Positions 6,986-63,319 of a stretch of DNA of 64,000 nt are shown one piece after another. The stretch is from assembly GCA_964016885.1 (NCBI GenBank), contig OZ024749.1, positions 15,128,001 through 15,192,000 of the forward strand, read 5' to 3'. Under the pieces are notes generated by a model, which was not told the DNA's origin, ran no database searches, and saw nothing but the letters and a program-made list of their open reading frames with translations. The DNA is from Eledone cirrhosa (Eukaryota). Each line of letters opens with the position of its first letter. Position 1 is the stretch's first letter. The translations under genes and the position numbers were made by a program.

Positions 6986-9082
6986 ATGGCTACGAAAAAG
7001 AAATTTCATACGTCACTCCCACTCATTCCGTCTTCTTCTTCCTCAATCATCACTACAGCAGAGAGAAGATTGTCTCTCTCCCTCCCTTCTTTAAATGTGT
7101 CTCTCTCCCTCCCTTCTCTTTCGCAAGTGACGAAAGAAAAGAAAAGTCTCGTGCAAAGCGTGCAAGGTTTCTCCACGACGACGACGACAGCGACGAAACA
7201 GGTGTGCGGGAAATACGAAAACCCAGTTCATTCGTCTGACGTCAGGAATAATAGCAGTAGCAGCCGTAATAACAACAGCAACAGTGACAATGAAAACAAC
7301 AGTAGCAGCCGCAACAGCATCACCAGCAGCATAAACAACAACAGCATTAGCAGCAGCAACACCAACAACAACCACAGCAACAGCAGCGGAGGCAGTAGTC
7401 GTAGTACCTGCAGCAACAACAAAAGTACCAGCAGCTCTGACGACAACAACAACAGCAGAGAAAAACCAATCTCATTTGCAGGTATTGCGAAAAACTTGGA
7501 AACAATCCTCATAACAAATGAGGAATTAGAGGAAGCGAAGAAGATGGTGACAAAGAACGGACACCGAGCAATCTGCAAGGCAGCGAAAAATTTTTTCGAA
7601 ACCCAAGAGCACTGTACGGTCACGTACCGTACAGTAAGTACAAAATCCCGTAGGGTGGAAAGAGCCACAGAGGCCCAAATACAAAAAGCCTTGGGGTCTG
7701 TGTGGCAGAGGAAAACGCACATCACCCGAGGCAAAAAATACGCCACCGTAGACGTACTTTTTGCCACACCCCAGGAGGCAAAGGCCCAATCAGTAGTGAC
7801 CCTAAGGAGCGAGGAAATGGTGTTGGTGCCCTCCTACTGCGGGCAAAAAATTGTGAGGGTCAAACTGACCCACGTCCCCCCCGGAATGACCCCTTCTTGG
7901 CTGGCCGCGTCTGTCCTCGTCGGAATCGAGGACAAAACAACTGTACTGCAAGTACAGAAAAAAGTAAGAGAAGATTGGGTCGGCTCCTCCATTGAGATGC
8001 TAATCCAAACCAACCAGGAGTGCATCGAAGCTATCCCGGATGTGATAGACTTCGATAACGGCACTCAACTGCCCATAAGTGTTGAGGGCAAACGCCCGAA
8101 ATGCTTTCGCTGTGGATCGAAGACTCACCTCAGGGCCTTCTGCAACGAGAAGACCCTGAGAAAGGAGAAAACCCCCCTCCTTCCGAATCCGGCTCCACGG
8201 CTACCAGCAACAGGACAAGCGGCAACCAGGAACGATAGGCCCGTGGCACCCATACCCACTCCACGGAAATCAAAAACAGCAGCAGCAGTGGAAATACTAA
8301 CAACAACAACAGCAATACCAAATGCAGCTGCAACAGAGACTCCAGTGCAAACATCACCAACAACAACAAGTGAAAGAGTGGAGTTGGTACCCCTCCCCGA
8401 CCTCACAGAATCAGACATGGAGTGTGAGGTGGGAGAGAGATGGCAAAAGGTCGTAAGAAGGCACAAACGCAGAAGCAGCGCATCGTCGCCTTTGAAAAGG
8501 GAGGAAAGAAATGAGAAAAGGGTAAAGTCTACTGCAAAGAGACCCACAGCAGCAACAACACCAACACCATCACCACCCACACTAGCGCCACCATCACCAC
8601 CGGCGACAACCCCACCGCCAACAACACCTTCAACACCACCACCACAAGCACCAACATCGCAAACACAACAACAAAACACACACACCCAGCAACAACGACA
8701 AGAAAATAGCAGAACCACACCCCACCCCCAGAAAAACAAATGCACGGCAATAAACACACACAACAAGAAACTAATGACTTACATAATTGAACACACAGAC
8801 ATTTCACAACAGGACTACATAATACCAGCACCAATCAAAACGCCAACTAACATAAGACTGCTAAAAATAGCACAGAAACAATACACAAACATTAAAACGA
8901 AATTCCCCAACGCAGTTGGTGATTTCAGGGACCTAGGAGGAACCATTAATCGAAGAGTATATTCAGACATTCTCTTAGAAGAGCCGACGACCAGCCGAAG
9001 GGACGATTCAACGGTCCCTTCACCAGACGATCAAGTGAAAAGGGATGTAAAAACCATCCCTCCTCTACCAAAAATACGGTAA
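6986..9082 (+). CDS. Tx1-like ORF1p (gag-like RNA-binding protein)
   Basis: 698 aa open frame; CCHC knuckle CFRCGSKTHLRAFC, basic WQKVVRRHKRR motif, S/N- and P/T-rich linkers; directly upstream of the EN-RT ORF. Confidence 0.88.
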   Translation: MATKKKFHTSLPLIPSSSSSIITTAERRLSLSLPSLNVSLSLPSLSQVTKEKKSLVQSVQGFSTTTTTATKQVCGKYENPVHSSDVRNNSSSSRNNNSNSDNENNSSSRNSITSSINNNSISSSNTNNNHSNSSGGSSRSTCSNNKSTSSSDDNNNSREKPISFAGIAKNLETILITNEELEEAKKMVTKNGHRAICKAAKNFFETQEHCTVTYRTVSTKSRRVERATEAQIQKALGSVWQRKTHITRGKKYATVDVLFATPQEAKAQSVVTLRSEEMVLVPSYCGQKIVRVKLTHVPPGMTPSWLAASVLVGIEDKTTVLQVQKKVREDWVGSSIEMLIQTNQECIEAIPDVIDFDNGTQLPISVEGKRPKCFRCGSKTHLRAFCNEKTLRKEKTPLLPNPAPRLPATGQAATRNDRPVAPIPTPRKSKTAAAVEILTTTTAIPNAAATETPVQTSPTTTSERVELVPLPDLTESDMECEVGERWQKVVRRHKRRSSASSPLKREERNEKRVKSTAKRPTAATTPTPSPPTLAPPSPPATTPPPTTPSTPPPQAPTSQTQQQNTHTQQQRQENSRTTPHPQKNKCTAINTHNKKLMTYIIEHTDISQQDYIIPAPIKTPTNIRLLKIAQKQYTNIKTKFPNAVGDFRDLGGTINRRVYSDILLEEPTTSRRDDSTVPSPDDQVKRDVKTIPPLPKIR

Positions 9083-9117
9083 GTGGTCTTTCCCATCTTT
9101 TCCACTCTATTTTAAAC

Positions 9118-12100
9118 ATGACCTCACTCAGAATAGGCAGCATAAATGCGCGTGGCTTGGGGTCGTCATGGAAGCAGGGTCACCTGCTCAACGACCTCAG
9201 GTCACTAAACATAGATGTAGTGGCCATCAGCGAGACCAGAATCTCGGAAGCACGGGCCTTCGCACCGATCTTCGGCGGCTACGATGTGTACGCATCTCCC
9301 AGCCGTCCTGGATCCGGTGGAGGAGTTGCTGTACTTTTTCGGAGAGGTTTGGATCTCGCCATACGGGCCATCTTCCTGGACCCAGAGGGTAAGCTGGTGG
9401 TGCTGGACGTGACCAGCGGAGACGGGCAAGCTTTCAGGCTAGTGGCCGTCTATGCCCCGACAGGAGCAGGGCGGCCTGATTTCTTCCGGCGTCTGGAGAC
9501 CTTTCTTGGAACGTCCCGCTCTTTAGTGTTAGTGGGCGACTGGAACGGGATCTTAGATGCACGCTGGGACTGTGTGGGATTAGCGGATAGGGGTGGAGGG
9601 TGCAAGAGCCTCACCAACCTGCTCAGGCGTTTTGAACTGTCTGACAGGTACCGATTGGATTTCCCGAATGTGCCAATGTGGACTTGGACAAACCGCATAG
9701 GGTCATCCAGATCATATCTAGATAGAGTATTTTGTAGGGAAATAGATAGGTCTAGCATAGGCTGTCCACAATTCAAGATAGTCAGCTACACGGACCACAA
9801 ATTCGTGACCTGTGTGCTTGACTTAGATAGGCTTCATAGACGAGGACCCGGCTACTGGAAGCTAAACGCGTCCTTACCAGCGCGCAAGGCCTACAGAGAC
9901 CGGATTAGCGAACTAGTTAAGCGGGCGTTGACGGGGGCCATCGTCAACAACAAGTGGTGGTTTGCTCTGAAAAGAGCGATTAGAATAGAATCGATTAGGT
10001 TTAGTAAGGCTTTAGCAATAGAGAAAAATAGAGCAGAGGGAGAACTAGTTAGAAAATTAGACGAGGCGCTTAGCAAAGGCATTGCGACCGACGTGCTTGC
10101 GGCGAAATTGGCCCTTGACCAATTCTTCAATGCAAAGCACGAAGGCTGCGTTGTCAGAGCTAGGGTGCGTGCTCTCAGACACGAGGGGACGAAAGCCGTT
10201 CAATGGGCCCGAGTGGCGGAGGCGCGTCGTGGCAACAAAGCCACGATCCGGTCTTTGGTGGACCACGACGGGCGCATGCTACTCGATCCCGGGCAAATGT
10301 GTGAAGCTTTTCAGCGACACTTCGCTCAGCTGTTCGGGGGCAGCGGGGGGCCGGGTAGAGGGATGGACTTTAGTGTCTACCTCGACGGGCTGCCGCGGCT
10401 CTCGGCCACTGAGGCGAGGTGTTGCGAAAAGCCGATAACAGCCGCTGAAGTACGGGAGGCAATGACTGGCTGCACAAGGGGTAAATCGCCTGGTTTGGAT
10501 GGTCTGCCCTATGAACTTTACGTACAGATGCCAGACTTGTTCGGAGGCCTCTTGGCGGACGTCTACTGCAACTGGCAACAGAACGGGAGAATTCCCAGTT
10601 CTGTGAGCCGAGGAGCGGTGGCACTGCTGAGAAAGGATCCGAACAAGGGGGATAACATAGACAATTTCCGGCCCATAACTCTGCTAAACACAGAGTTTAA
10701 GATTTTGGCCAAGGTGCTAGCAAAGAGGTTGGCGCTTGTCGTTGGTGGTCTGGTGGGAGAGGCGCAGACATGCGCCATTCCCGACAGATCCATCCACGAC
10801 AACCTCCACCTCATGCGATACATCGTAGAGAGGGTAGCTAGGGAACCTGGCACGGGTGGGTCCTTGATCAATTTAGATCAGTCGAAAGCTTTCGATAGGG
10901 TCGACCATCGTTACCTAGCGGCAGTCCTGAGGGCGGCTGGCTTTGGGCCCGTCTTCAGAGGCTGGATCGCTGCCATGCACAGCGACATCTGCTCTGTGGT
11001 GAGAGTGAACGGTCACCTGTCGGAACCGTTCAACATCATGCGCTCGGTCCGCCAAGGATGTCCCCTCTCGTCCCTCTTGTACGTATTGACTCTCGAGCCA
11101 TTACTGCACAAACTGGAGACGTTGAGGGGAGTCCCGCGCGAACTAGGATGCGGAAGATCCGTGTCAGCATATGCGGACGATGTCACCGTAGTGGTGTCGA
11201 ACGCCAAACACATCGAGGCGATCGGCACTACACTAAGAGAATACGAAGCGGTGACAGGAGCAATGATCAACCAGGAAAAGTCAGTGGGCCTGCAGCTCGG
11301 CACCTGGAGAGGCAGGTCCATGCCGTCCAACAGCGTCGTCGGGCGCTGGACGGACGGACCGGTTAAATTGCTAGGGGTCTGGTTCGGTCCGGACCTCCAG
11401 ACGGACAAAAACTGGGACGAGGTGACGAGCAGGGTGGCTTCTCTCACCCAGAAATGGGCGGAGAGGAAGCTATCCCTGAAAGGTCGAGCGGAGGTGGCTA
11501 ACGCGTACATCGCGTCTGTCATCTGCTACCGCCTAACCGTCGTACCTTGTCCTAAGCCTCGCCTGACTGCGCTGGAGCGTTTGCTCTTTCGCTTTTTGTG
11601 GAAGGGACGTGCTCCGATGGTCAGGCGGTCCATCTGTTGTCAACACCCGCTACGTGGAGGGCTGGGCATGCCGTGGCTGATGATGCGCAGGCACGCGCTC
11701 AGGCTACGACATCTCCACCTCTTCCTCGACGGTGATCAGGTGTGGTCGCCGTTTGCTAGACGCGTTTTTCCCCAGCTCGTTTCCTTGACGGAGCTGCAGT
11801 CCTGGGTCAAGCGAAGACCGAGAGGGAGCGCCTGGAGACTGGAATGTCTTCAGGCGCTCACAGCCCTCGACCAATCGGGCAATGTGATCGGTGGAAACTC
11901 CACCTCGGCGTTCTATAGAGGATTAGTGGAGGGGAAGAGCGACGACGTACTTGGGGAAACTCTAGGCGTCGACGAAAATCAACTAGCCAATCTCTTCGGA
12001 AGAACCTTCGGGCCAGGGCCTATGGACAACTTCCAGAAATCTCTGGCCTGGCAGTGCTACCGAGGAGCCTTGCCAGTTCGGGATAAACTCTACAGGCATG

Positions 12101-12537
12101 GAGGTGCCGTCAGCCGGGCATGTCCGAGATGCGCGCAGGGCGACGAAACCGTCCTGCACGCACTCGTCCAGTGTCCGAAAATTGCTGACTTGTGGGTTTA
12201 TGTCGAACACCTGCTGTCGCGTTTAGGACGGATCCAGCTATCATCTGAGTCTATCGTGAGGATTGCCCCGCCCTCCTCCTTTAGCCGGGAAGGGCAGGCA
12301 GTTTTTATCTGTCTGGTGGCCATGGCGAAAGAGATAGTATGGTGGACACGTTTGAAAGGGCTGAAGACGAGCACTTACCTCTTCGGTGATGCTCTGATTG
12401 ACTTTTTCAAATTTCATTTGAAAAGGAAAATCAGAGTAGAGAAGGAAGTGCTCTCTTCCCAGCATTTTGTTGAAAGATGGGTGAGAGAAGCAAGAATGGC
12501 CCGAGTGAATGGGCCGACTCTGAGTATATATCTGTAA
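9118..12537 (+). CDS. Tx1/L1-like ORF2p: APE endonuclease, reverse transcriptase, C-terminal zinc finger
   Basis: SINARGL, SET, VYAP, GDWN, YLDR, TDH (APE); GYWKLN; KSPGLDG, RPITLLN, KAFDRV, QGCPLS, YADD (RT); CPRC...HALVQC. Confidence 0.96.
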   Translation: MTSLRIGSINARGLGSSWKQGHLLNDLRSLNIDVVAISETRISEARAFAPIFGGYDVYASPSRPGSGGGVAVLFRRGLDLAIRAIFLDPEGKLVVLDVTSGDGQAFRLVAVYAPTGAGRPDFFRRLETFLGTSRSLVLVGDWNGILDARWDCVGLADRGGGCKSLTNLLRRFELSDRYRLDFPNVPMWTWTNRIGSSRSYLDRVFCREIDRSSIGCPQFKIVSYTDHKFVTCVLDLDRLHRRGPGYWKLNASLPARKAYRDRISELVKRALTGAIVNNKWWFALKRAIRIESIRFSKALAIEKNRAEGELVRKLDEALSKGIATDVLAAKLALDQFFNAKHEGCVVRARVRALRHEGTKAVQWARVAEARRGNKATIRSLVDHDGRMLLDPGQMCEAFQRHFAQLFGGSGGPGRGMDFSVYLDGLPRLSATEARCCEKPITAAEVREAMTGCTRGKSPGLDGLPYELYVQMPDLFGGLLADVYCNWQQNGRIPSSVSRGAVALLRKDPNKGDNIDNFRPITLLNTEFKILAKVLAKRLALVVGGLVGEAQTCAIPDRSIHDNLHLMRYIVERVAREPGTGGSLINLDQSKAFDRVDHRYLAAVLRAAGFGPVFRGWIAAMHSDICSVVRVNGHLSEPFNIMRSVRQGCPLSSLLYVLTLEPLLHKLETLRGVPRELGCGRSVSAYADDVTVVVSNAKHIEAIGTTLREYEAVTGAMINQEKSVGLQLGTWRGRSMPSNSVVGRWTDGPVKLLGVWFGPDLQTDKNWDEVTSRVASLTQKWAERKLSLKGRAEVANAYIASVICYRLTVVPCPKPRLTALERLLFRFLWKGRAPMVRRSICCQHPLRGGLGMPWLMMRRHALRLRHLHLFLDGDQVWSPFARRVFPQLVSLTELQSWVKRRPRGSAWRLECLQALTALDQSGNVIGGNSTSAFYRGLVEGKSDDVLGETLGVDENQLANLFGRTFGPGPMDNFQKSLAWQCYRGALPVRDKLYRHGGAVSRACPRCAQGDETVLHALVQCPKIADLWVYVEHLLSRLGRIQLSSESIVRIAPPSSFSREGQAVFICLVAMAKEIVWWTRLKGLKTSTYLFGDALIDFFKFHLKRKIRVEKEVLSSQHFVERWVREARMARVNGPTLSIYL

Positions 12538-13096: not shown

Positions 13097-13167
13097 TATT
13101 TTATTATGCGCATTTCAAAAACAAATATCATCATGCAATAATATTTGTGTTTTCATCAGATAAAACA
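13097..13167 (-). ncRNA. Type I hammerhead ribozyme motif
   Basis: Minus strand reads tgttttat-CTGATGA-(16-bp stem II, one mismatch)-GAAAT-GCGC-ATA-ataaaata; stems I and II pair and stem III is palindromic. Confidence 0.75.
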
Positions 13168-33378: not shown

Positions 33379-33534
33379 TACATACATACATATACATACA
33401 TACATATACATACATACATATACATACATATACATATATACATCATTTTTTTTTTTCATCATTTCATTTAACGTCTGCTTTTCCCTGCTTGCAGGCTAAA
33501 AGTCTGTCTTAAGCCAGAAGGCTCATTTGGCCGG

Positions 33535-33770
33535 TGCTTATCCCAGTTTCATGGCGTGAAGCGACTGAGAGTACAAGACTCCCCCCAGGACAGGACACCA
33601 ATCCATCGCAGGGTTAAACCTCCAGCTATTGCTGGTACTCATTTTCAGCTGAGTATATTGGAGCAACATGAAATGAAGTGTTTTGTTCAAGAACAACACG
33701 CAGCCCAGGAATCGAACCCACAACATTATGATCGTAAGTCCAACACACTTACCACTAGGCCACGTGCCAC
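33535..33770 (-). mobile_element. tRNA/CORE-type SINE
   Basis: Minus strand GTGGCCTAGTGG (A box), GGTTCGATTCC (B box), ttgaacaaaacacttcatttc. Confidence 0.7.
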
Positions 33771-33842
33771 CACTACATATATATATATATACATATACAT
33801 ATATATATACATACACATATATATACATACATATACATACAT

Positions 33843-35463
33843 ACCAGGAAGAGGCACCACTGATGCCCTCTTCCTTGTGAGGCAATTACAGGAAAAGTAC
33901 CTAGCTAAAAGTAAGCCACTCTACTTGGCATTTGTCGACCTTGAGAAAGCCTTTGACAGAGTTCCACGTGCTGTAATCTGGTGGGCTCTTAGAAAACTAG
34001 GAGTAGATGAATGGCTTGTGAAAGCGGTACAAGCCATGTATAGGGGAGCAGTCAGCAAAGTTAGGATTAGCAATGAGTATAGCGAGGAATTTAGCGTACA
34101 GGTTGGGGTCCACCAGGGCTCTGTTCTTAGCCCTCTCCTGTTCATCATAGTCCTGCAGGCAATAACGGAGGAGTTTAAGACCGGATGCCCATGGGAACTC
34201 CTGTATGCTGATGACCTCGCACTCATAGCTGAATCTATGGTAGAACTAGAGAATAAATTCCAAACTTGGAAGCAGGGACTAGAAAGAAAGGATCTCAAAG
34301 TCAACATGACAAAGACTAAGGTCCTTGTAAGTAGACGAGAAAACAGAACCCAGATCCCCTCAGGGAAATGGCCTTGCTCAGTATGTAGGAAAGGTGTAGG
34401 TAGGAACTCCATTCTCTGCCCCAAATGCAAACAAAGGGTACACAAGAGATGTAGCGGGATCTCAGGAAGCTTAATTAAGAATGTAGGATTCACATGCAGC
34501 AGCTGTGCTGAGACAGCAAGCAGCAAACAGCCACAGGAAACAAGTACCACCAATCTCTGGGAGGGCTCTGTAGAAACAGTAGACAGCTTCTGCTACCTAG
34601 GTGACCAAATTAGCAGCAGAGGTGGGTGTTCAGAAAGTACAATAACTAGGGTAAGAACGGGATGGAAGAAGTTTAGGGAACTACTACCACTGCTAGCTGC
34701 AAAAGGCTTCTCCCTCAGAATGAAAGGCAGACTGTATGATGCGTGTATCCGAACAGCGATGTTGCATGGTAGTGAGACCTGGGCGCTGAAGGTGGAAGAC
34801 TTACGGAGATTAGAGAGAAACGAAGCCTGCATGCTCCGATGGATGTGTAACAGTAATATACGTGAACGACAAAGCATAAATGAATTGAGCGAGAGACTGA
34901 GCATAAGAGGAATCAAATGCTGTGTGCAGGAGTGGCGGTTGCGCTGGTATGGACATGTGATGCGTATGAAGGATGACAGCTGCATAAAAAGGTGCAGAGC
35001 ACTAGAAGTTGATGGAAACCGCGGAGTGAGGAGACCCAAGATGACCTGGGATGAGGTGATAAAAGCCGACCTTACCCAATTACACCTCTCAAAGACAATG
35101 ACACACGACCGTGACTTCTGGCGTCACGTATTGATACAGAGTACCCGACCTCCCATGGGTACAAGCTGAAGCATATAGACAATATGCCCCCACACCCCCC
35201 ACCGCAAGGTGGTCGTGGAGGTGCCACGGCAAAAAAGCACCCAGCTCACACTGTAAAGTGGACGTGTAGGCGCCACGAAAAAGCACCCAACACTCACTGT
35301 AAATGAGGTTGGTGTTAGGAAGGGCATCCAGCTGTAGAAATCAAGCCAAATCAGTTCCTGTATGAGCAAGGCATGGTCAGCCGACCAGACACTGCCCACA
35401 ACAGGACAACCCGCCTAACCCATGCTAGCGTGGAAGAACGGACGTAAAATGGTGATGATGATG
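33843..35463 (+). pseudogene. 5'-truncated RTE LINE (subfamily A), frame still open
   Basis: Protein nearly identical to the C-terminal part of the 54041-57160 ORF; same 3' UTR and (ATG)n tail. Confidence 0.93.
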
Positions 35464-35787
35464 ATATATACATACATACATATACATACATATATATACA
35501 TACATACATATATATATATACATATATACATACATATATATACATATATACATACATATATATACATATATATACATATATACATACATATATATATATA
35601 CATATATATACATACATATATATATATACATATATACACATATATATATGTACATATATATACATACATATATACACATACATATATGTATATATATATA
35701 ACCAAATGTTAAACAATGAATAATCAATGAATATAGTTTTACAACAGATTAAAAGCACTCTACAAGAAAGTTTTCTGGAGTTATTAA

Positions 35788-36068
35788 TATTATTCAAAAT
35801 ATTAAATGGATACATTCACATAATCAAAATATATGTTTTATTATATATATTTCGGAGGTACTGTGCTGTTTTTTCAGTACGTCCTCATCAGATAAAATAC
35901 ATAAATTGATGTATGACATACCTCAACTGTGCTGATGGTTCAATTCCAGTCTTGGCAGTCTTTTATCTGATGAGGACGTACTGAAAAAACAGCACAGTAC
36001 CTCCAAAATATATATATAATAAAACATATATTTTGATTATGTGAATGTATCCATTTATTAATATTTTG

Positions 36069-36075
<7 letters not shown>
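35788..36075. mobile_element. Inverted pair of hammerhead-containing pLTR-like arms
   Basis: About 110-bp arms; minus-strand ribozyme motif 35836-35897 intact (ttttat-CTGATGA-stem-GAAAT-ATAT-ATA-ataaaa); plus copy 35961-36024 has GAAA changed to AAAA. Confidence 0.7.
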
Positions 36076-36104
<29 letters not shown>

Positions 36105-39410: not shown

Positions 39411-40127
39411 CCTTAGAGGACAGAGATCAGCGACCAGTGGTCAACAGAGAGACAATCTACAAGGTAGGTGACAGGCAGAGGAAATACAGAAAAGATCAAA
39501 AGAGAAGGAGGACAAGGAGAAGTGTAGATCTGGATAGAGATTGGCCCTAACTGGTTTAAATATCATGACTACACCCACACCAATAAATCTATTAGGAGTT
39601 AAAACCCCATGATTGCATTAAATGTAGGTTTACAAGAGACACAAATTGAGAATATATAAATAAATATATAAATGAACATAAATATTTAGGTCAGACAGTT
39701 GACCTAAAGCTAGAGGCAAGTAGGAATCACTTCACCAATTTAACAGGCAGCCAAGAAAACTGGGTATTCTGGATTATTCTCTCAGACACAGCCGGTTTTA
39801 TAAATATTGATAAACAGGAAGAGGATAAGGGTGAGACATAATGGTGTAGATATACGGTGTGCCATTGATGGTTTATTTACACACAATGTCGTAGTAAGAG
39901 AGTGGCAGGGAGACCTGTGTATCTGGCCACAGCATCGCACATATATATGTGTGCATGTATGTATTTGCATGTATGTATTTGCATGTATATGTAAATCTCT
40001 CTCAATATATCATCATCATCATTTTATGGATGTTTTCCATATATATATGCATATGTATATATATTTATATAAGTAAATATATAGATATATGTAATACAAT
40101 TTGTGTGTATGTATATATATATATATA

Positions 40128-41693
40128 TGCCTTTGACAGAGTACCCCGCTCGATTATCTGGTGGGACCTTAGAAAACTAGGTGTTGATGAATGGCTTGTG
40201 AGAGCTATACAAGCCATGTATAAAGAAACAGTCAGCAAGGTTAGAATTAACAACGAATATAGTGAAGAGTTTAGCGTAAAAGTTGGTGTTCATAAGGGCT
40301 CCGTCCTTAGCCCTCTACTATTTATTATTGCCCTTCAGGCTATAACAGAAGAGTTCAAGACCGGCTGCCCATGGGAACTTCTATACGCAGATGATCTAAC
40401 GCTCATAGCTGAACCAATGGCTGAACTAGAGAAGAAATTCCAAACATGGAAGCATGACCTAGAATCAAAAGGCCTTAAAATTAACCTGTCTAAGACTAAA
40501 GTTCTAGTTTGTAGGAAGGAAAATAGGGCACTGGTCCCATCTGGGAAATGGCCATGCTCAGTGTGTAGGAAAGGAGTAGGCAGAAACTCCATTTTATGTC
40601 CCAAATGCAAAGTATGGGTGCATAAAAGATGTAGTGGGATCACAGGTAAGCTAACTAAGAATATAGATTTTATATGTGGCCGGTGCTCTAGTGCAATAAG
40701 TAGCAGCAAGTGCCCACAGAATACTAGCTCATTCCATTGCACAGATGGTTCTATAGAAATAGTGGACACCTTCCGTTACCTGAGTGACAAAATCAGCAGT
40801 GGGGGAGGGTGCTCTGAAAGTACAGTAGCTAGAGTCAGAACGGGATGGAAAAAGTTCAGAGAGCTATTGGCAGCTAAAGGGTTCTCTCTAAAAATGAATA
40901 GCAGGCTGTATGAACCCTGCATACGAACAGCAATGTTACATGGCAGTGAGACCTGGGCATTGTGTGCAGAGGATATACGCAGACTGGAGAGGAACGAAGC
41001 TTGCATGCTCCGTTGGATGTGTAATAGTAATATACGTGAACGGCAAAGCATAAATGAACTAAGGGAGAAATTAGGAATAAGAGGATCAGATGTTATTTAC
41101 TACGTTGGTATGGTCACGTGATGCGCATGAAAGACGACAGCTGTATAAAAAAGTGCAGAACGATAAAAATAGACGGTAGCCACGGAGTAGGCAGACCCAG
41201 AAAAACCTGGGACGACTTGATAAATTCCAACCTCACACACTTACACCTCTCCAAGACAATGTCACTGGACCGAGATCTTTGGCGCTACACAGTAATACAG
41301 AAGACCCGCCTTGCCTAAGTACAAAGCGAAACCTACAGTCAGTAGGCACCTCTAACAAAAATACACCCCCGTCCCCCCACCCCATCCACACCACCCCTTT
41401 CGATGTAAAGTTATGTTGGTACCACAACATCCAGTCCGAAATAAATGAGGTTGTGTAGGTGTCACGAAAAAAAAACACACAGTCCCCCACGCTGTAATGT
41501 GGCCGTGTAGGTAACACGGTAAAAACCTCCCAATCCACACTGTAAACGTGGTTGGTGTTAGGAAGGGCATCCAGCCGTAGAAAACCCGCCAGACAGTCCT
41601 ATACGAGCAAGACAACCAATCTTGCCTCAAGTGGGAAAATTCCCGTCCAAACCCATTCTAGCGTGGAAGATGGTCGTTAAACGATGATGATGA
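40128..41693 (+). pseudogene. 5'-truncated RTE LINE (subfamily B)
   Basis: AFDRVPR to RDLWRY homology with small deletions and a frameshift; sister of 29267-30957. Confidence 0.92.
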
Positions 41694-48903: not shown

Positions 48904-49148
48904 ATATCACAGAAAAAAAGAGAATCAGTGTTGCGACGAATGGAATTTATTGGACATATTACAATCGTTTCTCTGATGACCAGTTTGAGACACGAACGAT
49001 GTGATGATCGAATCCGACTCTGAAAATCGCAAGTCCTCAGATACGTCTTGATTCTACGAAGCAGATTTTCCTATAGGAAAATCTGCTTCGTAATATCTCC
49101 AATAAATTCCATTCGTCGCAACACTGATTCTCTTTTTTTCTGTGATAT
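48904..49148 (-). mobile_element. Inverted-repeat element with hammerhead-like motif (48953-49047)
   Basis: 57-bp outer inverted arms, an inner palindrome at about 49054-49092, and minus-strand gacgtat-CTGAGGA...GAAAC-GATT-GTA-atatgtc then AATAAA. Confidence 0.55.
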
Positions 49149-49466
49149 ATATATATATATATATTTATATATAAATTAATAAAAATAATGAATAAAAACA
49201 AAGAAACAGTTCCTTATATTAAAAAATTCATCATTTTACAATCGTTTCTAGGATATATATGTTTGTGTTGGTATGTATATCATATAGATCTATGTAAAAT
49301 TATTACAAACTATCAGAGGGAATATACATACCTACACATATATATATGCTATCTTCAGAAATAATTTTTGAATACAACTTCTCTTTTCATGATATTCGGA
49401 TGACATTGAGTTCTTCATACGGATTGGACACTACCGTACATTTTGGTAGATTTATCTACATATATT

Positions 49467-49515
<49 letters not shown>

Positions 49516-50115
49516 GTATAGTCATAGTCCAACTGTTTTTTTTTTTTACCACTCCCTACCTGATATATATGTATGTATGTGTGTGTGTCTATATATGCAT
49601 GTATGCATGTGTATATATGTATGTGTGTGTATATATATAAAGAGAGAGATATATGTAAGTATGTATATATATATGGAAGCGATTGCACAATAGGAAGAGA
49701 TTAGATTAAGTGTAAAAACCTATCTATAAATACAGCTTGTAAACCTGCACAACCTGTGACATGTGTGTGTGTATATACATATATAAACACATACACCTAC
49801 ATCCGTGTACACACACACACACACATATATGTTATAGAGACATACTTAGAACAATTAATTGATTGGTCTTTGTACCTGTATGTTTAAGTTCTAAAATTAA
49901 TATACATGTGTGTGTGTGTTTAACAGATATACAACATATACACCTGTTGGACAGATGGCTGTGCATGTGTACCTGTATAAATATATATATATAAACACAC
50001 ATATACAAAGAGAGTGGGGATGGAGAGAGAGAAAGAGTGAGACAGGTAAATAGATTGATAGACGGAGATATAGATAGCTAGGCAGACAGGTAGATAGACA
50101 TAGATAGACATAGAA

Positions 50116-50148
<33 letters not shown>

Positions 50149-50584
50149 TTTTGAGTGGCACCATAGCTACTGACCAGTAGGACAATGTGACAGGTGTCAT
50201 ATTTTGGCAGAGGTCAGTATTGTTTAGATAGCCACAGTGTAAATGACTGTTGTTAGTCAAAAGCCAAGCCAGAAGAGGGAGGGGGGGGGAGAACAATCAA
50301 ACATTTCATTCTTAAAGTTCTTCACTAACCTATTGATACAGTCAACTGAAATACAAATTTTCTTTATATATATATACACACACACACATATATATAAGTG
50401 ATCATGTAGGTGTCACAACAAAAAGCACCCAGCACACACTGTCAATGTGGTTGGCATTAGGAAGGACATCCAGCTGTAGAAAACCAGCCAGAAACACTCC
50501 TATATGAACAAGACACAGTCACCCGACCCAACTTGCCTCTAAATGGGTCCCGTCTAACCCATGCTAGCGTGGAAGATATACGTT

Positions 50585-50807
50585 AATCAAGAGATGTCAA
50601 CATGAAAGGACCTGCTATTTTTATCTAAAGACATTTTTTCCAATTCCATCCCGCCCATCCCCTCAATCTATTTTATTTATCATTCTTTCTTCTGATGAAG
50701 GACTAGCGTCCGAAACGTTAAGACCCTCTTCCTGCTATATCAAGCGTTAACCTAATATATCCCTTCCATATACTGTACCGATTGTGTTGTTATTTCTGTT
50801 TACCTTT

Positions 50808-50812
<5 letters not shown>
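50585..50812 (+). mobile_element. Short Penelope-like element with minimal hammerhead
   Basis: tctt-CTGATGAA-GGAC-tagc-GTCC-GAAAC-GTT-aaga at 50688-50723; relatives at about 1525, 1932, 42480-42505(-), 48671 and 52345-52380(-). Confidence 0.65.
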
Positions 50813-50855
<43 letters not shown>

Positions 50856-50938
50856 CAAGAAAGTAAGTGTTGGTAAAATCCAGTACTTCAGTATGTGGAT
50901 AGGGAGCACTCAACGAAGATATAAGTTCCGGAGTTATA

Positions 50939-51253
50939 ATAGTGACGAAACATAAGTCAATTGCATGAACTCATAATCCTTTATTTACTGCTATATATAT
51001 TTCGATGATAGCCATTGAATGGCTATGACCTCATCAGGCAGTTAGTCAGTTCTTAGATATGCCAGCTCTGTGTGTATAGTGTTGATGGTATATGTCCCAA
51101 GGCTCTGATACCATCAACACTATAAACACAGAGCTGGCATATCTAAGAACTGACTAACTGCCTGATGAGGTCATAGCCATTCAATGGCTATCATCGAAAT
51201 ATATATAGCAGTAAATAAAGGATTATGAGTTCATGCAATTGACTTATGTTTCG

Positions 51254-51260
<7 letters not shown>
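50939..51260. mobile_element. Near-perfect 153-bp-arm fold-back carrying two intact hammerhead motifs
   Basis: Plus motif 51157-51212 actgc-CTGATGA-ggtcatagccat-tca-atggctatcatc-GAAAT-ATAT-ATA-gcagt then AATAAA; mirror motif 50987-51042; 16-nt spacer. Confidence 0.8.
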
Positions 51261-51318
<58 letters not shown>

Positions 51319-52227
51319 ATGTTTTTTTTTGGTTTTCCTTACTGTTTCTTTAGCGATTGTAAAGTGTACAGCAGTGCCAGGTTGCTAACCCACCGCCTGT
51401 ATATGCTGGGTTTTTTACCCACTGAGATCAGTGGTTGACACCCCTCTGCTATGATGAGGCGTCCGGCAAGACCAATGGACTCATCTCTTGGCATGGACAC
51501 GAAAAAGCCACTGCTGATCATGACTGTTGTAAGTACTAACTGCTCGATGTGCTGAATGGCGCGGAAGAACCTAATAAGCTAAGAACTAAAATATATAACA
51601 ATATATGAGGTCATAGTGTACACGAGCTGGAATGGCTCTTTCAGCACATCTCCCTCACCATCCTCTAGTGAAACACCTTCTTTATTCTGCCTCCTGCGGC
51701 AACGGGTCAGCCAGTGCATCGGCTTCCATTTACTCATAATAAGGAGAGATGAGGAGAGCGGGAGAGATAGAGGCAGTGACAGTGGGAGTTTGGTTCCTTT
51801 GTGCTCAGAACTGGTGTATCACACACACACACACATTCTTGTTATTAAAGACTTCACTATTTTTATTGGTAAGATGAGATAAGCTTGATGCACTTTACAG
51901 TCCTCTCTTCTTCAGGAGTGAAAAGAAACTGGATGAATTAAGGGCAGTTCAGGTAGTAGAGCATTTAAACATTCAAATTTTAAGAAAGCCAAGGATAGGA
52001 TATTATTTATTTCTATATCTCTACAGATGTTTCAATGCGGCTAGAATATCACATTCATTTGTTGATATATATATATATATATATAAACGAAAAAATAATA
52101 ATCACCAAGGTTCAATACTCTAATAATACATTATTTAATTGATTTACATATGTTAGCGTGGAAGAACGGACGTAAAATGATGATGATGATATTTCATTGA
52201 AATACAAAAGGAGGTAGCATTTAATTC

Positions 52228-52264
<37 letters not shown>

Positions 52265-52597
52265 TTATGCACAAAGAGTAAATGGAAACAGCACAATATA
52301 ATGAAGAAATATATTAGTTTAACACTTGATATAGTTGAAAAAGAGTCATGTTTTAGACACTAGTCCTTCATCAGAAGATAGAATTAGGAATAAAAGATGA
52401 AATAGAAAGTGAGAGAGTAAGAAGAGAAAGGAATGGAAAAAAACGTTTTGAGAAAAACACATGTGAATTCAGTCAGCCATCTTGTATATATATATATAAT
52501 AATAATAATAATAAACAACCTTCGGCTTCCAGGACGCATGGTAAATTTTTGAGACTTATTTTAGGAAAAAAGTAGTGCCTTCGATGCCGGGAAATCC

Positions 52598-52641
<44 letters not shown>

Positions 52642-53164
52642 TTCTCTGCAAATACTTAACCCTTTTGTTACTACCTCATATCTATGGATACAAAGTTTTT
52701 TTTGTTTTAAAGTGTTTATATTTATCTAAAAACCTCCCATCATAATTTTATGTAAGAACCTTTAAGTTATGTTCCAAACACCAACTTAATAATAAGAATA
52801 TTAGTTATATTACTAAATCCTTCAAAATTCTTGATTACTTTCAAATTCATTTGAAAAATCATAGGCAGTGTCTTTTATTAGAAACTAGCAGAATGGCCCG
52901 GCCTTGCTCAGGATTCTAAACATAGATTGGCATGCTTATCCCTCCTTTTTGAAACAGTACAGAGAAGTACGGAATACCTCGGCCTCAGGATGGTGTCTAC
53001 ATTTTGTGCTTATAAAAAAATTTGTCATAGATTACCAGGTTTTTTTTCCGTGTGAAGAAAATCAATACTTTATCGCGATATAAATACTTTTGTTTATATT
53101 TTGTTATTGTGTATGCAAAAATATCTGTACACGAATATATAATTATATATATATATATATATAT

Positions 53165-53722
53165 ATAAAATATTAAAAAAATAATGAATAAAACAATGAA
53201 ACAGTTCCTTATATTAAACAAAAAAAGTTCATTATTTAACGATCGTTTCTGGGATATATATGTGTTAGAATTGGCATGTATATTTAACAGATCTATGTAC
53301 AAAATTATACAAAATTATACAAACTATCAAAATTAAATATACATACCTACTCATATATATGCCGTCTTCAGAAATAATGATTATTTCTGAAGACGGCATA
53401 TATATGAGTTGGTATGTATATTTAATTTTGATAGTTTGTATAATTTTGTATAATTTTGTACATAGATCTGTTAAATATACATGCCAATTCTAACATATAT
53501 ATCCCAGAAACGATCGTTAAATAATGAACTTTTTTTGTTTAATATAAGGAACTGTTTCATTGTTTTATTCATTATTTTTTTAATATTTTATCTTGACTCT
53601 GTATTCCGTTTATCTTTCACCGAAAGTGATTTTTCATTGCATCTCTTTCCATGATATCCGGATTACATTGAGTTCTTCATACGGATTGGACACTACCGTA
53701 AACTCTTGGTAGATTTATCTAC
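53165..53722. mobile_element. Fold-back element (arms about 210 bp) with long-stem-II hammerhead motifs plus unique tail
   Basis: Inverted repeat 53165-53591; CTGAAGA at 53387, GAAAC-GATC-GTT-aaataat at 53507-53525; paralogs at 58987-59515 and 49177-49460. Confidence 0.7.
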
Positions 53723-54040: not shown

Positions 54041-57000
54041 TCAGCATGTACCCATGGGAGGTCGGGTACCCTGTATTACTGCGTGACGCCAGAAGTCACG
54101 GTCGTGTGTCATTGACTTTGAGAGGTGTAGTTGGGTAAGGTCGGCTTTTATCACCTCATCCCAAGTCATCTTGGGTCTCCCCACTCCGCGGTTTCCATCA
54201 ACTTCTAGTGCTCTGCACCTTTTTATGCAGCTGTCATCCTTCATACGCATCACATGTCCATACCAGCGTAACCGCCTCTCCTGCACGCAGCATTTGATTC
54301 CTCTTATGCTCAGTCTCTCTCTCAATTCATTTATGCTTTGTCGTTCACGTATATTACTGTTACACATCCATCGGAGCATGCAGGCTTCGTTTCTCTCTAA
54401 TCTACGTAAGTCTTCCACCTTCAGCGCCCAGGTCTCACTACCATGCAACATCGCTGTTCGGATACACGCATCATACAGTCTGCCTTTCATTCTGAGGGAG
54501 AAGCCTTTTGCAGCTAGCAGTGGTAGTAGTTCCCTAAACTTCTTCCATCCCGTTCTTACCCTAGTTATTGTACTTTCTGAGCACCCACCTCCGTTGCTAA
54601 TTCGGTCACCTAGGTAGCAGAAGCTGTCTACTGTTTCTACAGGGCCCTCCCAGAGATTGGTGGTACTTGTTTCCTGTGGCTGTTTGCTTGCTGTTTCAGC
54701 ACAGCTGCTGCATGTGAATCCTACATTCTTAATTAAGCTTCCTGAGATCCCGCTACATCTCTTGTGTACCCATTGTTTGCATTTGGGGCAAAGAATGGAG
54801 TTCCTACCTACACCTTTCCTACATACTGAGCAAGGCCATTTCCCTGAGGGGATCTGGGTTCTGTTTTCTCGTCTACTTATAAGGACCTTAGTCTTTGTCA
54901 TGTTGACTTTGAGGCCCTTTCTCTCTAGTCCCTGCTTCCAGGTTTGGAATTTATTCTCTAGTTCTACCATAGATTCAGCTATGAGTGCGAGGTCATCAGC
55001 ATACAGGAGTTCCCATGGGCATCCGGTCTTAAACTCCTCCGTTATTGCCTGCAGGACTATGATGAACAGGAGAGGGCTAAGAACAGAGCCCTGGTGGACC
55101 CCAACCTGTACGCTAAATTCCTCGCTATACTCATTGCCAATCCTAACTTTGCTGACTGCTCCCCTATACATGGCTTGTACCGCTTTCACAAGCCATTCAT
55201 CTACTCCTAGTTTTCTAAGAGCCCACCAGATTACTGCACGTGGAACTCTGTCAAAGGCTTTCTCAAGGTCGACAAATGCCAAGTAGAGTGGCTTACTTTT
55301 AGCTAGGTACTTTTCCTGTAATTGCCTCACAAGGAAGAGCGCATCAGTGGTGCCTTTCCCTGGAACAAACCCAAATTGCATCTCGTCTATATTCACCCGG
55401 TCCCTAATCAGCTGTGCTATAACTCTTTCTGTTACTTTCATGACCTGGTCCATCAACTTTATACCTCTATAGTTTCCTCTATCTAGTGCATCGCCTTTAC
55501 CTTTGTAGCAGTTGACAATGATGCTACTGCACCAATCTTTTGGTATGGCCCCCTCTAGTATTACCTGGTTAACGATACGTGTGGTTATAGTGTGACCTAC
55601 AGACCCAGATGCCTTCAGCATCTCGGCAGCTATACCCGATGGACCGGTTGCCTTCCCTATCTTCATATCTCTGATTGCCTTACTTACTACGCTGCCGCTG
55701 ACTTGTACTGCTGGTCCCTCTATAGGGTCTACGTGGGGTAGGGTCTCTTCTTCCCATGCATTCTCCTCATTTAGTAATCTATCATAATGACTCTTCCATG
55801 CATCTTTCTTCTCAGCACTTGTGAGGGCAAGCTCACCTTTATCATTCCGGATACACTTCTCTCCAATGACATCACAACTATCTCTGACACACTGCCTCGC
55901 AATCTTGAATACCTCCTGTTTCTGGTCCTCACGTTGTAAAACATGCTTGAATTTTCTATCCTCTGCTTCCCTCCTAGCTAAGTATACTTGTCGCCTAGCT
56001 TCCCTCTTGGTCTCTATGTAATGTACCCTGCTCCCCCCGTTCTTCCATTCTTTCCATGCCTGTCTCTTGGCCTTGACTGCTTCATCTACCTTATTGTTCC
56101 ACCACCAAGTCACTCTCCTCCTGCTTGAGGTCTTACTCCAGCCACAAACCTCATCCGTCGCCTCTAGTAAGTTATTTTTTAGGAACTCCCAGTTCTCTTC
56201 TACGTTAAATGTCTCTATCTGTTCTTCTTTACTGTCGTAGGCGTTGAGTAAAATATCTTTAAATCTGTTACTGGTTGAGGGGACTTTCAGCTTCCAGATC
56301 TTTCTTCTCCAGGTTGGCCTCTGTTTCAGGGCTCGTCTAGTTCTGACCGTGAGGTCGCTGACAACTAAGCTATGTTGGGATGTACATTCCTCACTAGGGA
56401 AGGCTTTTGTGTTTACGACCGTCCATCTGTCACGTCCTCTGATGAGGATAAAATCTAACTGACTAGAGTGCTCCCCTGATCTATAGGTGATCAGGTGGTT
56501 GTCGGGTTTTTTAAAGTTTGTGTTACATATCGACATGTCATTGGCGTCGCAGAATTCTAGAAGTCTGAATCCTTCCTCATTCCTTGTGCCAACTCCATGG
56601 CCTCCATGTACTCTATTGAAGCCGTCGCAGTGTTTACCTACGTGTCCGTTAAAATCTCCTGCAATGATTAGGAAGTCCTTGTCGTCTGTTAGAGCAGTAG
56701 TGTGTATTAGGGACTCGTAAAACCTATCCTTAAGTTCGTCTGGCAGCCCCGATTGGGGTGCGTAAGCTGATATTATTGTGGTAATTGTCTTATTCAGGAC
56801 TAGTCTGAGTTTAATGATTCTTGCATTTACCCTGTACACTGAGATTACTTTATCTACCCACTTGTCAGCTAATAGTATACCTACACCACCCATCCCATCG
56901 TCATTTCCCACCCAGAAAAATTTGTAGCACTGGCTTTTTCCTACAAGGACTCTAGCAGACCCTCCTCTCCATCTAGTCTCTTGCACACAGCATACATCAA

Positions 57001-57160
57001 CTTCCTTTCGCTCTAGCATTTCTACGATTTCTCCTGCTCTTCCTTTCATTGAGCCTACATTGATGGTACCAACTCGGAGTTTTGGGCATTTGTCGACACT
57101 CGTAGGGGAGGGTCTCTGGGTTGGCGCTTCACGTGGGTGCTTGGTAGCTCGCAGATTCAT
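54041..57160 (-). CDS. RTE-clade APE endonuclease / reverse transcriptase with internal PHD-like finger
   Basis: 1039 aa; GTINVGS, QETRW, AYAPQ, GDFNGHVG, LDFIL, SQH; YRGIKL, KAFDRV, HQGSVLSP, YADD; RRLRWYGHV...GRPK. Confidence 0.95.
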   Translation of the reverse strand: MNLRATKHPREAPTQRPSPTSVDKCPKLRVGTINVGSMKGRAGEIVEMLERKEVDVCCVQETRWRGGSARVLVGKSQCYKFFWVGNDDGMGGVGILLADKWVDKVISVYRVNARIIKLRLVLNKTITTIISAYAPQSGLPDELKDRFYESLIHTTALTDDKDFLIIAGDFNGHVGKHCDGFNRVHGGHGVGTRNEEGFRLLEFCDANDMSICNTNFKKPDNHLITYRSGEHSSQLDFILIRGRDRWTVVNTKAFPSEECTSQHSLVVSDLTVRTRRALKQRPTWRRKIWKLKVPSTSNRFKDILLNAYDSKEEQIETFNVEENWEFLKNNLLEATDEVCGWSKTSSRRRVTWWWNNKVDEAVKAKRQAWKEWKNGGSRVHYIETKREARRQVYLARREAEDRKFKHVLQREDQKQEVFKIARQCVRDSCDVIGEKCIRNDKGELALTSAEKKDAWKSHYDRLLNEENAWEEETLPHVDPIEGPAVQVSGSVVSKAIRDMKIGKATGPSGIAAEMLKASGSVGHTITTRIVNQVILEGAIPKDWCSSIIVNCYKGKGDALDRGNYRGIKLMDQVMKVTERVIAQLIRDRVNIDEMQFGFVPGKGTTDALFLVRQLQEKYLAKSKPLYLAFVDLEKAFDRVPRAVIWWALRKLGVDEWLVKAVQAMYRGAVSKVRIGNEYSEEFSVQVGVHQGSVLSPLLFIIVLQAITEEFKTGCPWELLYADDLALIAESMVELENKFQTWKQGLERKGLKVNMTKTKVLISRRENRTQIPSGKWPCSVCRKGVGRNSILCPKCKQWVHKRCSGISGSLIKNVGFTCSSCAETASKQPQETSTTNLWEGPVETVDSFCYLGDRISNGGGCSESTITRVRTGWKKFRELLPLLAAKGFSLRMKGRLYDACIRTAMLHGSETWALKVEDLRRLERNEACMLRWMCNSNIRERQSINELRERLSIRGIKCCVQERRLRWYGHVMRMKDDSCIKRCRALEVDGNRGVGRPKMTWDEVIKADLTQLHLSKSMTHDRDFWRHAVIQGTRPPMGTC

Positions 57161-57405
57161 ATTTCATCTATTGATTCAGAGTTGCTCGTGTATTCCCAGC
57201 TCATCCATCCCTAACGGTGGGAAAATTGAGGGCTAGAAGGACAGTGGTGGTGGGGTAATGGCAGGGTGTGTTGGGATGCGCCAGAGGAGGAGAGAGTTAG
57301 TTAGGCAGGTAGTAGCAGCAGCAGCAGTGGAAATGGCATGCTAGGTTTGATTGGTCGAATAGACTATGGTGGTGTGTGGGGGTGGGGGGGAGGGAAATTG
57401 TGAGG

Positions 57406-58986: not shown

Positions 58987-58995
<9 letters not shown>

Positions 58996-59512
58996 TAAAC
59001 AAATAATGAACAAACAATTCCTTATATTAAACAAAAAAAGTTCACTATTTAACGATCGTTTCTAGGGCATATATGTGTTATAATTGGTATGCATATTTAA
59101 CAGATCTATGTACAAAATTATACAAAATTATACAAATTATCAAGATTAAATATACATACCTAACTCATATATACGCCGTCTTCAGAAGACGGCGTATATA
59201 TGAGTTAGGTATGTATATTTAATCTTGATAATTTGTATAATTTTGTATAATTTTGTACATAGATCTGTTAAATATGCATACCAATTATAACACATATATG
59301 CCCTAGAAACGATCGTTAAATAGTGAACTTTTTTTGTTTAATATAAGGAATTGTTTGTTCATTATTTGTTTAATATTTTATCTTGACTCTGTATACCGTT
59401 TATCTTTCACCGAAATTGGATTTTCATTACATCTCTTCTTTCCATGATATCCGGAATACATTGAGTTCTTCATACGGATTGGACACTACCGTAAACTCTT
59501 GGTAGATTTATC

Positions 59513-63258: not shown

Positions 63259-63319
63259 TATTTTATCTGATGAGAGCATACCAAAGTTTTGGTACCCTTG
63301 AAATATATATAATAGAATA
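63259..63319 (+). ncRNA. Type I hammerhead ribozyme motif
   Basis: tattttat-CTGATGA-gagcataccaaagttttggtaccctt-GAAAT-ATAT-ATA-atagaata, lying between two (TA)n tracts. Confidence 0.7.

Follow-up and report, generated by a model that had tools for sequence, protein, structure and literature searches.

The 64,000-nucleotide stretch of Eledone cirrhosa DNA that was analysed, referred to here as the window, carries an inverted repeat whose arms, 50939-51091 and 51108-51260, are each 153 nt long, 99% complementary and separated by a 16-nt spacer. A preliminary description, made from the sequence alone, had reported self-complementary arms of 153 bp with one mismatch, and this is confirmed, the sole mismatch lying at 51074. 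While its arms were correct, the extent it gave to the element was too narrow, as the insert occupies 50853-51258, with 88 nt more at the left. The pLTR ends lie at 51258 and 50941, and the outermost 2 nt of the arms as first reported are a chance TA pairing. The additional 88 nt (50853-50940, minus strand) form a tail on the left arm, the right arm having none, where tail denotes the sequence after the pLTR end and before the ORF in tandem copies of the parent element. The order within the insert is (TA)n, tail, pLTR stump, a 2-nt AT overlap, pLTR stump and (TA)n. Both insert ends lie inside (TA)n, where a target site duplication is unreadable. The features are as follows.

50815-50852, no strand: left half of the target, a (TA)n tract (from the sequence; 3' ends of the family join (TA)n genome-wide)
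50853-50940, minus strand: Penelope tail of 88 nt, missed in the preliminary description (unit positions 1-88; runs into the ORF leader in L041, L156 and L157)
50941-51091, minus strand: left pLTR copy, 5'-truncated, starting 18 nt inside the common 5' start (alignment WIN q363-602)
50987-51042, minus strand: type I hammerhead motif, predicted cut after 50992 (descriptor scan; activity is a prediction)
51090-51091, no strand: head-to-head junction with the 2-nt AT overlap (arm alignment and junction comparison)
51092-51107, no strand: unpaired loop, of right-arm sequence (arm alignment)
51090-51258, plus strand: right pLTR copy, from the commonest 5' start of the family to the pLTR end (alignment WIN q345-519)
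51157-51212, plus strand: type I hammerhead motif, predicted cut after 51207 (descriptor, folding and covariation; activity is a prediction), with stem I at 51157-61/51208-12, core at 51162-68, stem II at 51169-95 and stem III at 51199-206
51214-51219, plus strand (mirror 50980-50985): AATAAA, a candidate poly(A) signal (from the sequence; also downstream of the motif in sister families)
51259-51313, no strand: right half of the target, a (TA)n tract (from the sequence)

A descriptor scan found the type I motif on both strands, with CUGAUGA, GAAA, an AUA triplet and a 5-bp stem I. On each strand CUGANGA, GAAA and NUH follow the type I order, and stems I and II are present. The stem II region is 27 nt long with one C-C mismatch, and the 8-nt stem III is self-complementary. 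The earlier claims of a complete hammerhead on each strand and of AATAAA just downstream both stand. The Rfam hammerhead model, which had been suggested as a check, gave no match, since none of the 25 hits at E≤1 in 49000-53000 belongs to a hammerhead family; these hits are low-scoring, miRNA-like and to hairpins and simple repeats. Hence, the hammerhead call rests on the descriptor and on covariation. In a comparison of nine motifs, which come from the arm family, from its sister families and, in three cases, from elsewhere in the window, 13 of the 19 named pairs vary on both sides, a number reached in 0 of 500 shuffles, although the motifs are related and were chosen partly by a pairing descriptor, so that the test leans positive. 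Stem III remains self-complementary in this comparison where its centre changes. A 44-nt hammerhead pattern, allowed up to two mismatches, matched the 3.0-Gb genome 4,269 times (2137+2132), compared with 0+0 times for the reversed control, and the pattern is therefore not due to chance. The C-C mismatch (51172/51192, the fourth stem II position) is kept in the arm family and in the sister loci L077, L080 and L084, and the pairs neighbouring it covary; it may represent a tertiary contact.

The accessible part of PMC4209133 describes PLE remnants of Schistosoma mansoni in which two minimal hammerheads lie 100-700 bp from each other on opposite strands. The insert shares this arrangement, together with a long stem II, a 5-bp stem I, a palindromic stem III and the dimer-type design. 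It differs from the S. mansoni motifs in that stem III is an 8-nt palindrome and, in the pairing used, there is no unpaired base between core and stem II.

Judged from its sequence, the arm is the pLTR of a Penelope-like element (PLE) of ∼4 kb with an RT plus a GIY-YIG endonuclease at the C-terminus. The copies at the first 30 hammerhead loci end at or near a common 3' base, mostly run into TA-rich repeat and are variably truncated at the 5' side, and the arm forms the 3' end of copies that extend upstream into RT and GIY-YIG frames. The linkage to a PLE RT/GIY-YIG ORF that the preliminary description had proposed to look for in the genome was thereby found, while the insert itself codes nothing, in agreement with its description as non-autonomous. 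The unit measures 3,973 nt in the partial tandem L041, and a pLTR delimited by partial tandem, with the hammerhead inside it, is present in L041, L156 and L157; tandem copies have 88 nt between the pLTR end and the ORF leader. With up to one mismatch, the genome contains 3,924 pLTR ends running into TA, 241 pLTR ends running into the tail and 157 tail ends running into TA. The longest open frame among 150 scored matches (L156:2537-5077) encodes 847 amino acids and is, as in EN+ PLEs, a single ORF with RT and C-terminal GIY-YIG. Its motifs are YRDD and VVY..YIG, with no cysteine pair between GIY and YIG, as well as DKT at position 86, CxCX5C at 708, CxxC at 806 and CxH at 834. RWR lies upstream, outside the frame, in L041, L156 and L157, and RW[KR] occurs in 100 of 120 homologues. 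The ORF has 428 homologues, of which the two best-scoring named ones are molluscan. No match to the frame was found in Pfam at E≤1 and none in a profile search of PDB sequences; GIY-YIG domain matches fell below the cut-off, and RVT_1 matches 2 of 31 aligned members. Low-complexity Thr/Pro/Arg-rich inserts, longer than in most of the ∼700-residue homologues, lie after the RT and in the linker and are reminiscent of the N-rich inserts of rotifer PLEs in the accessible part of PMC3846280. The long ORFs near the insert in the window were considered as the parent and rejected because they are LINE-type (EN + RT).

By its motifs the parent element would belong to the Hydra clade, which inserts into (TA)n and whose members are generally <3 kb, a tendency that is not strict (PMC8557442, section 11). 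With the clade as it is characterized in the accessible parts of that source, the parent shares the C-terminal GIY-YIG, DKT, the CxCX5C linker, the terminal CxxC and CxH, the lack of a cysteine pair in GIY-YIG (no CCHH), the (TA)n target and a canonical hammerhead, and its RT blocks match the Hydra alignment of the supplement by eye. It departs from the clade in having RWR for the RWK motif near the N-terminus and in exceeding the usual size, its 3,973-nt unit containing low-complexity inserts as well as a long 3' UTR. The supplement includes the octopus Hydra-1_Obim and also Penelope-13_HM, annotated with an inverted 5'-truncated copy. Four motif words of the parent family were not found in the accessible supplement, and the family thus appears to be unlisted there. 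An adjacent inverted 5'-truncated copy combined with a one-sided tail, as found here, is standard in EN+ PLEs according to the accessible parts of PMC8557442 and PMC3846280. With the insertion unit drawn there (PMC8557442, Fig. 2 legend; PMC3846280), our copies share the head-to-head inverted 5'-truncated copy, the tail at one end, partial tandems in long copies and the hammerhead inside the pLTR. They differ from it in that both arms here are stumps without an ORF and the tail is 88 nt rather than 30-40 nt.

A palindrome pattern of two hammerheads head to head (gap of 60-260 nt, exact 12-mers, which restricts the possible 5'-end positions) matches 74 loci of the arm family and its sister families. 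The first 50 listed of these (31 of the arm family and 19 of sister families) were examined together with the window copy. Within the arm family, 27 of 32 pairs combine one tail end with one pLTR end, the remaining five consist of a pLTR end and an arm that ends elsewhere, with no clean tail end, and none has two tails or two pLTR ends. Sister families have one tail in 13 of 19 pairs, no tail in six and two tails in none. The one exception seen to the one-tail rule is L229 (G000:C1:414558100-414558850), a head-to-head pair of tail and tail split by a short palindromic TA tract. Junctions in 30 arm-family pairs, tallied by hand from BLAST ends with two complex loci omitted, comprise 13 short overlaps (1-6 nt), five flush joins and 12 with inserted bases, and a few share a 6-nt palindrome at the common start. 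On our own reading of both 1.5-kb flanks, an inverted partner accompanies 16 of 30 tail-ended loci compared with 1 of 30 hammerhead-picked loci, and none of 61 pLTR-ended copies has one within 450 nt. This inverted tailed arm is also present in the ORF-bearing long copies L163, L164 and L165, at the 5' end of each. The variable junctions and the pairing of a tail end with a pLTR end indicate that the palindrome is rebuilt at insertion and not copied as a unit.

The two arms of the window copy differ at 1 of 141 compared sites, versus a mean of 4.2 per pair in 33 palindromes, which bears out the young age that had been proposed for it. In the 33 compared pairs, the two arms have on average 1.15 deviations from the family majority in common, compared with 0.083 for arms of different loci, and at the commonest variable site they agree in 28 of 29 pairs. 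Such shared variants would reflect one source template, or later conversion. The mismatch in the window copy occupies a position at which the family carries either letter; it fits two templates or repeat mutation and counts against a single source template.

The pLTR-ended arm has the longer 5' reach in 16 of 26 pairs and the tailed arm in four, with six equal (p=0.012; one three-piece locus omitted). In 12 simple pairs picked by their tail, a set that leaves out one duplicate and three multi-piece loci, the pLTR-ended arm is longer in seven, the tailed arm in none and five are equal. Four tail-picked loci have a tail-only arm that shares nothing with its partner. Among 61 pLTR-ended copies, taken unselected in order along one contig (11 extend beyond the fetched 450 nt), 18 start ≤3 nt from the site matching window position 51090, which lies upstream of the hammerhead core by 72 nt. 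Of 26 palindromes, 18 have a longer arm that extends to this 7-nt zone, within the range to which the search gap restricts it, and a weak hairpin begins at the base matching 51090 (z −1.9). Two other explanations of these 5' ends were rejected. Ribozyme cleavage does not account for them, as stem III or the cut site is the starting point of four of the 61 copies, three of which have one flank in common. TA microhomology alone is contradicted both by longer AT runs elsewhere in the reference, which collect 0-4 ends, and by the 18 of 26 palindrome junctions, mostly without a TA tract, that reach the hot-spot site. We infer that the 51090 site is a discrete template end; the case that it is the transcription start is evenly balanced, and an internal promoter is described in Drosophila virilis Penelope (accessible part of PMC2377424). 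Three very short copies (two in L181 and one in L202) have one upstream flank in common, so a stump together with its flank has itself been multiplied.

We propose that the insert very probably represents two head-to-head 5'-truncated pLTR copies of a Hydra-motif PLE in (TA)n, one of them tailed. The family identity, the link to an RT/GIY-YIG ORF, the one-sided tail, the variable junctions and the shared arm variants are read directly from the copies, whereas arrival of both copies in a single insertion is likely. Within this reading, a two-strand cut followed by two-site priming on one RNA and end-joining is, taken as a whole, the probable mechanism. The endonuclease of the element would cut both strands of the TA tract. 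On the same RNA, reverse transcription would be primed at the pLTR end by one cut end and at the tail end by the other. The first cDNA would usually extend to the discrete template start (window 51090), with the second trailing it and halting at or short of that start, after which the two cDNA ends would be end-joined. Two priming events on one RNA, with a template that has a discrete start, agree with the copy statistics. For a Poseidon PLE protein, cleavage and extension of both strands were observed in vitro, with initiation at two internal sites on either side of the tail (accessible part of PMC11167929).

A broader proposal, which we hold somewhat short of an even call, is that Penelope inverted repeats are twin-priming products. 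One RNA would be primed by both cut strands, at either end of the tail. The leading cDNA would run off the discrete 5' end of this RNA, 72 nt upstream of the core of the hammerhead, and be displaced by the trailing cDNA. The proposal resembles LINE-1 twin priming in that one RNA is used by two primers from the target strands and the outcome is a head-to-head inversion with microhomology at the join. It differs in that priming here is fixed to the pLTR end and the tail end, and in the usual overlap of the arms, which results in a palindrome. A literature search, with subscription papers mostly outside its reach, found no paper joining Penelope, twin priming, inversion and GIY-YIG, and the formation of tandem and inverted PLE structures is named as open in the accessible part of PMC8557442.

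The alternative that survives best, although we regard it as unlikely, retains the same element and has the inverted arm arise through self-priming by fold-back, perhaps on an antisense template, a route suggested for rotifer PLEs in the accessible part of PMC3846280. Self-priming would account for the private variants common to both arms and for the 1-6 nt overlaps at 13 of 30 junctions, several of which fall on the 6-nt palindrome, but the other 17 junctions are flush or have inserted bases. Moreover, if a tail-primed cDNA folded back, the tailed arm would have to be the longer one, which is seen in 4 of 26 pairs and the reverse in 16, and it is from this opposite bias that we infer two priming events and end-joining. 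Self-priming on an antisense template survives both the arm-length and the junction tests if one end was later trimmed at the pLTR end. Several observations count against the reading of two copies laid down in one insertion. The shared variants could come from arm-to-arm gene conversion, the tailed arm is the longer in the four pairs just mentioned, 5 of 32 pairs have no clean tail end and L229 joins tail to tail. In addition, Pfam is blank on the ORF, GIY-YIG falls below the cut-off, no PDB sequence was found, and the unit (3,973 nt) and tail (88 nt) depart from their described lengths.

The preliminary description saw here a young, non-autonomous ribozyme element that would serve as a hairpin-versus-cleavage switch or as a dsRNA source; taken as a palindrome spreading as a unit, we consider this reading very improbable. 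Both hammerhead motifs are intact, such palindromes recur at 74 loci and read-through RNA would be double-stranded. However, junctions and arm lengths vary among the 32 pairs examined, the palindromes are a small minority relative to 3,924 pLTR ends at TA, the arms of the 33 compared pairs have drifted by 3.0% on average, and the motifs lie on opposite strands, with a predicted stem I probability of 0.0 in the full RNA. The variable centres and unequal ends are not those of a self-copying palindromic (MITE-like) element, and spread of the ribozyme as a palindrome is not upheld. The insert shares with non-LTR retrozymes (accessible parts of PMC7229834 and bioRxiv 10.64898/2026.07.22.740005) a short, non-coding, PLE-derived sequence with a type I hammerhead; retrozymes are head-to-tail tandems, unlike the inverted pair with a variable junction seen here, and no short direct pLTR tandem was found in 30 hammerhead-picked loci.

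Two independent insertions in one TA tract, or a later inverted duplication, with the arms homogenised by gene conversion, are less probable still. TA tracts accumulate insertions, L102 and L229 resemble separate inserts split by TA or other DNA, and the window arms differ at a segregating site. Against this, the junction here has no TA tract, tailed copies at about 4-6% would rarely give 27 mixed pairs in 32 (p<1e-20), and an inverted duplication would not strip the tail exactly at the pLTR end every time. An assembly or library fold-back artefact is the least credible explanation, for although short-read contigs and RAD reads (four runs) give deep repeat coverage with none spanning the whole stretch, the flanks are unrelated, each arm ends at its own biologically defined site and the structure recurs in long natural copies.

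As a monomer, the hammerhead fold has a predicted energy of −10.9 kcal/mol versus −14.7 kcal/mol for the minimum, which mispairs the core. A dimer fold with an 8-bp stem III reaches −17.2 kcal/mol per monomer, and core mispairing persists in the best dimer. The predicted energies suit the dimer-type, low-activity motifs described for PLE hammerheads (accessible parts of PMC4209133 and PMC6765202), in line with the earlier proposal of a Penelope-pLTR type I hammerhead of dimer type. In RNA spanning the insert the arms are predicted to pair (−285.7 kcal/mol), with stem I at a probability of 0.0 and the core paired with the other arm at a probability of 1.0. The two hammerheads, on opposite strands, are never both sense in one RNA and cannot pair there, and transcription from either side makes the antisense arm first. 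The opposite-strand motifs and their predicted burial in the fold-back thus argue against the proposed switch. The ribozyme is predicted to be the dimer-type motif of the parent, passively carried, and RNA read across the locus to form a 153-bp hairpin that buries the ribozyme and keeps it off. The locus would be a possible dsRNA source if read through.

The window contains further elements of related kinds. A second head-to-head double hammerhead, of another family, lies at 35787-36076 adjoining (TA)n, with GAAA intact on the minus strand and AAAA on the plus strand. The TA-flanked palindromes at 53165-53591 and 58987-59381 are 85% alike, differ in their centres and have the same one-sided extension, with a relative at 49175-49365; a pattern search found no hammerhead core in the two palindromes, which probably are comparable insertion products of another family. 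Lone hammerhead or core motifs of other families occur at 63262-63316 (plus), 13100-13164 (minus), 50692-50717 (plus) and about 48672 (plus), one of them having a stem III palindrome with a GCGC centre. LINE-type frames lie at 54041-57163 (minus), 8950-12537 (plus), 33472-35169 (plus) and 39898-41121 (plus), with EN and RT and a PHD finger inside the RT region, and with EN, RT and zf-RVT.

The sequence at 50853-51258 is a dead insertion of known architecture that is real, young and ordinary, and the locus is useful as one of dozens of clean, young Penelope integration products. The family yields testable numbers, namely which arm carries the tail, which arm is longer and where the 5' ends pile up, with no pile-up where the ribozyme would cut. 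Read-through of such loci, should it occur, could supply small RNAs directed at this family of about 4,000 copies. If the twin-priming proposal is true, the tail, the inversion and the pLTR-length stumps would be the outcome of one mechanism, and the tail-only arms, the arm-length bias and the shared variants would be its genomic record.
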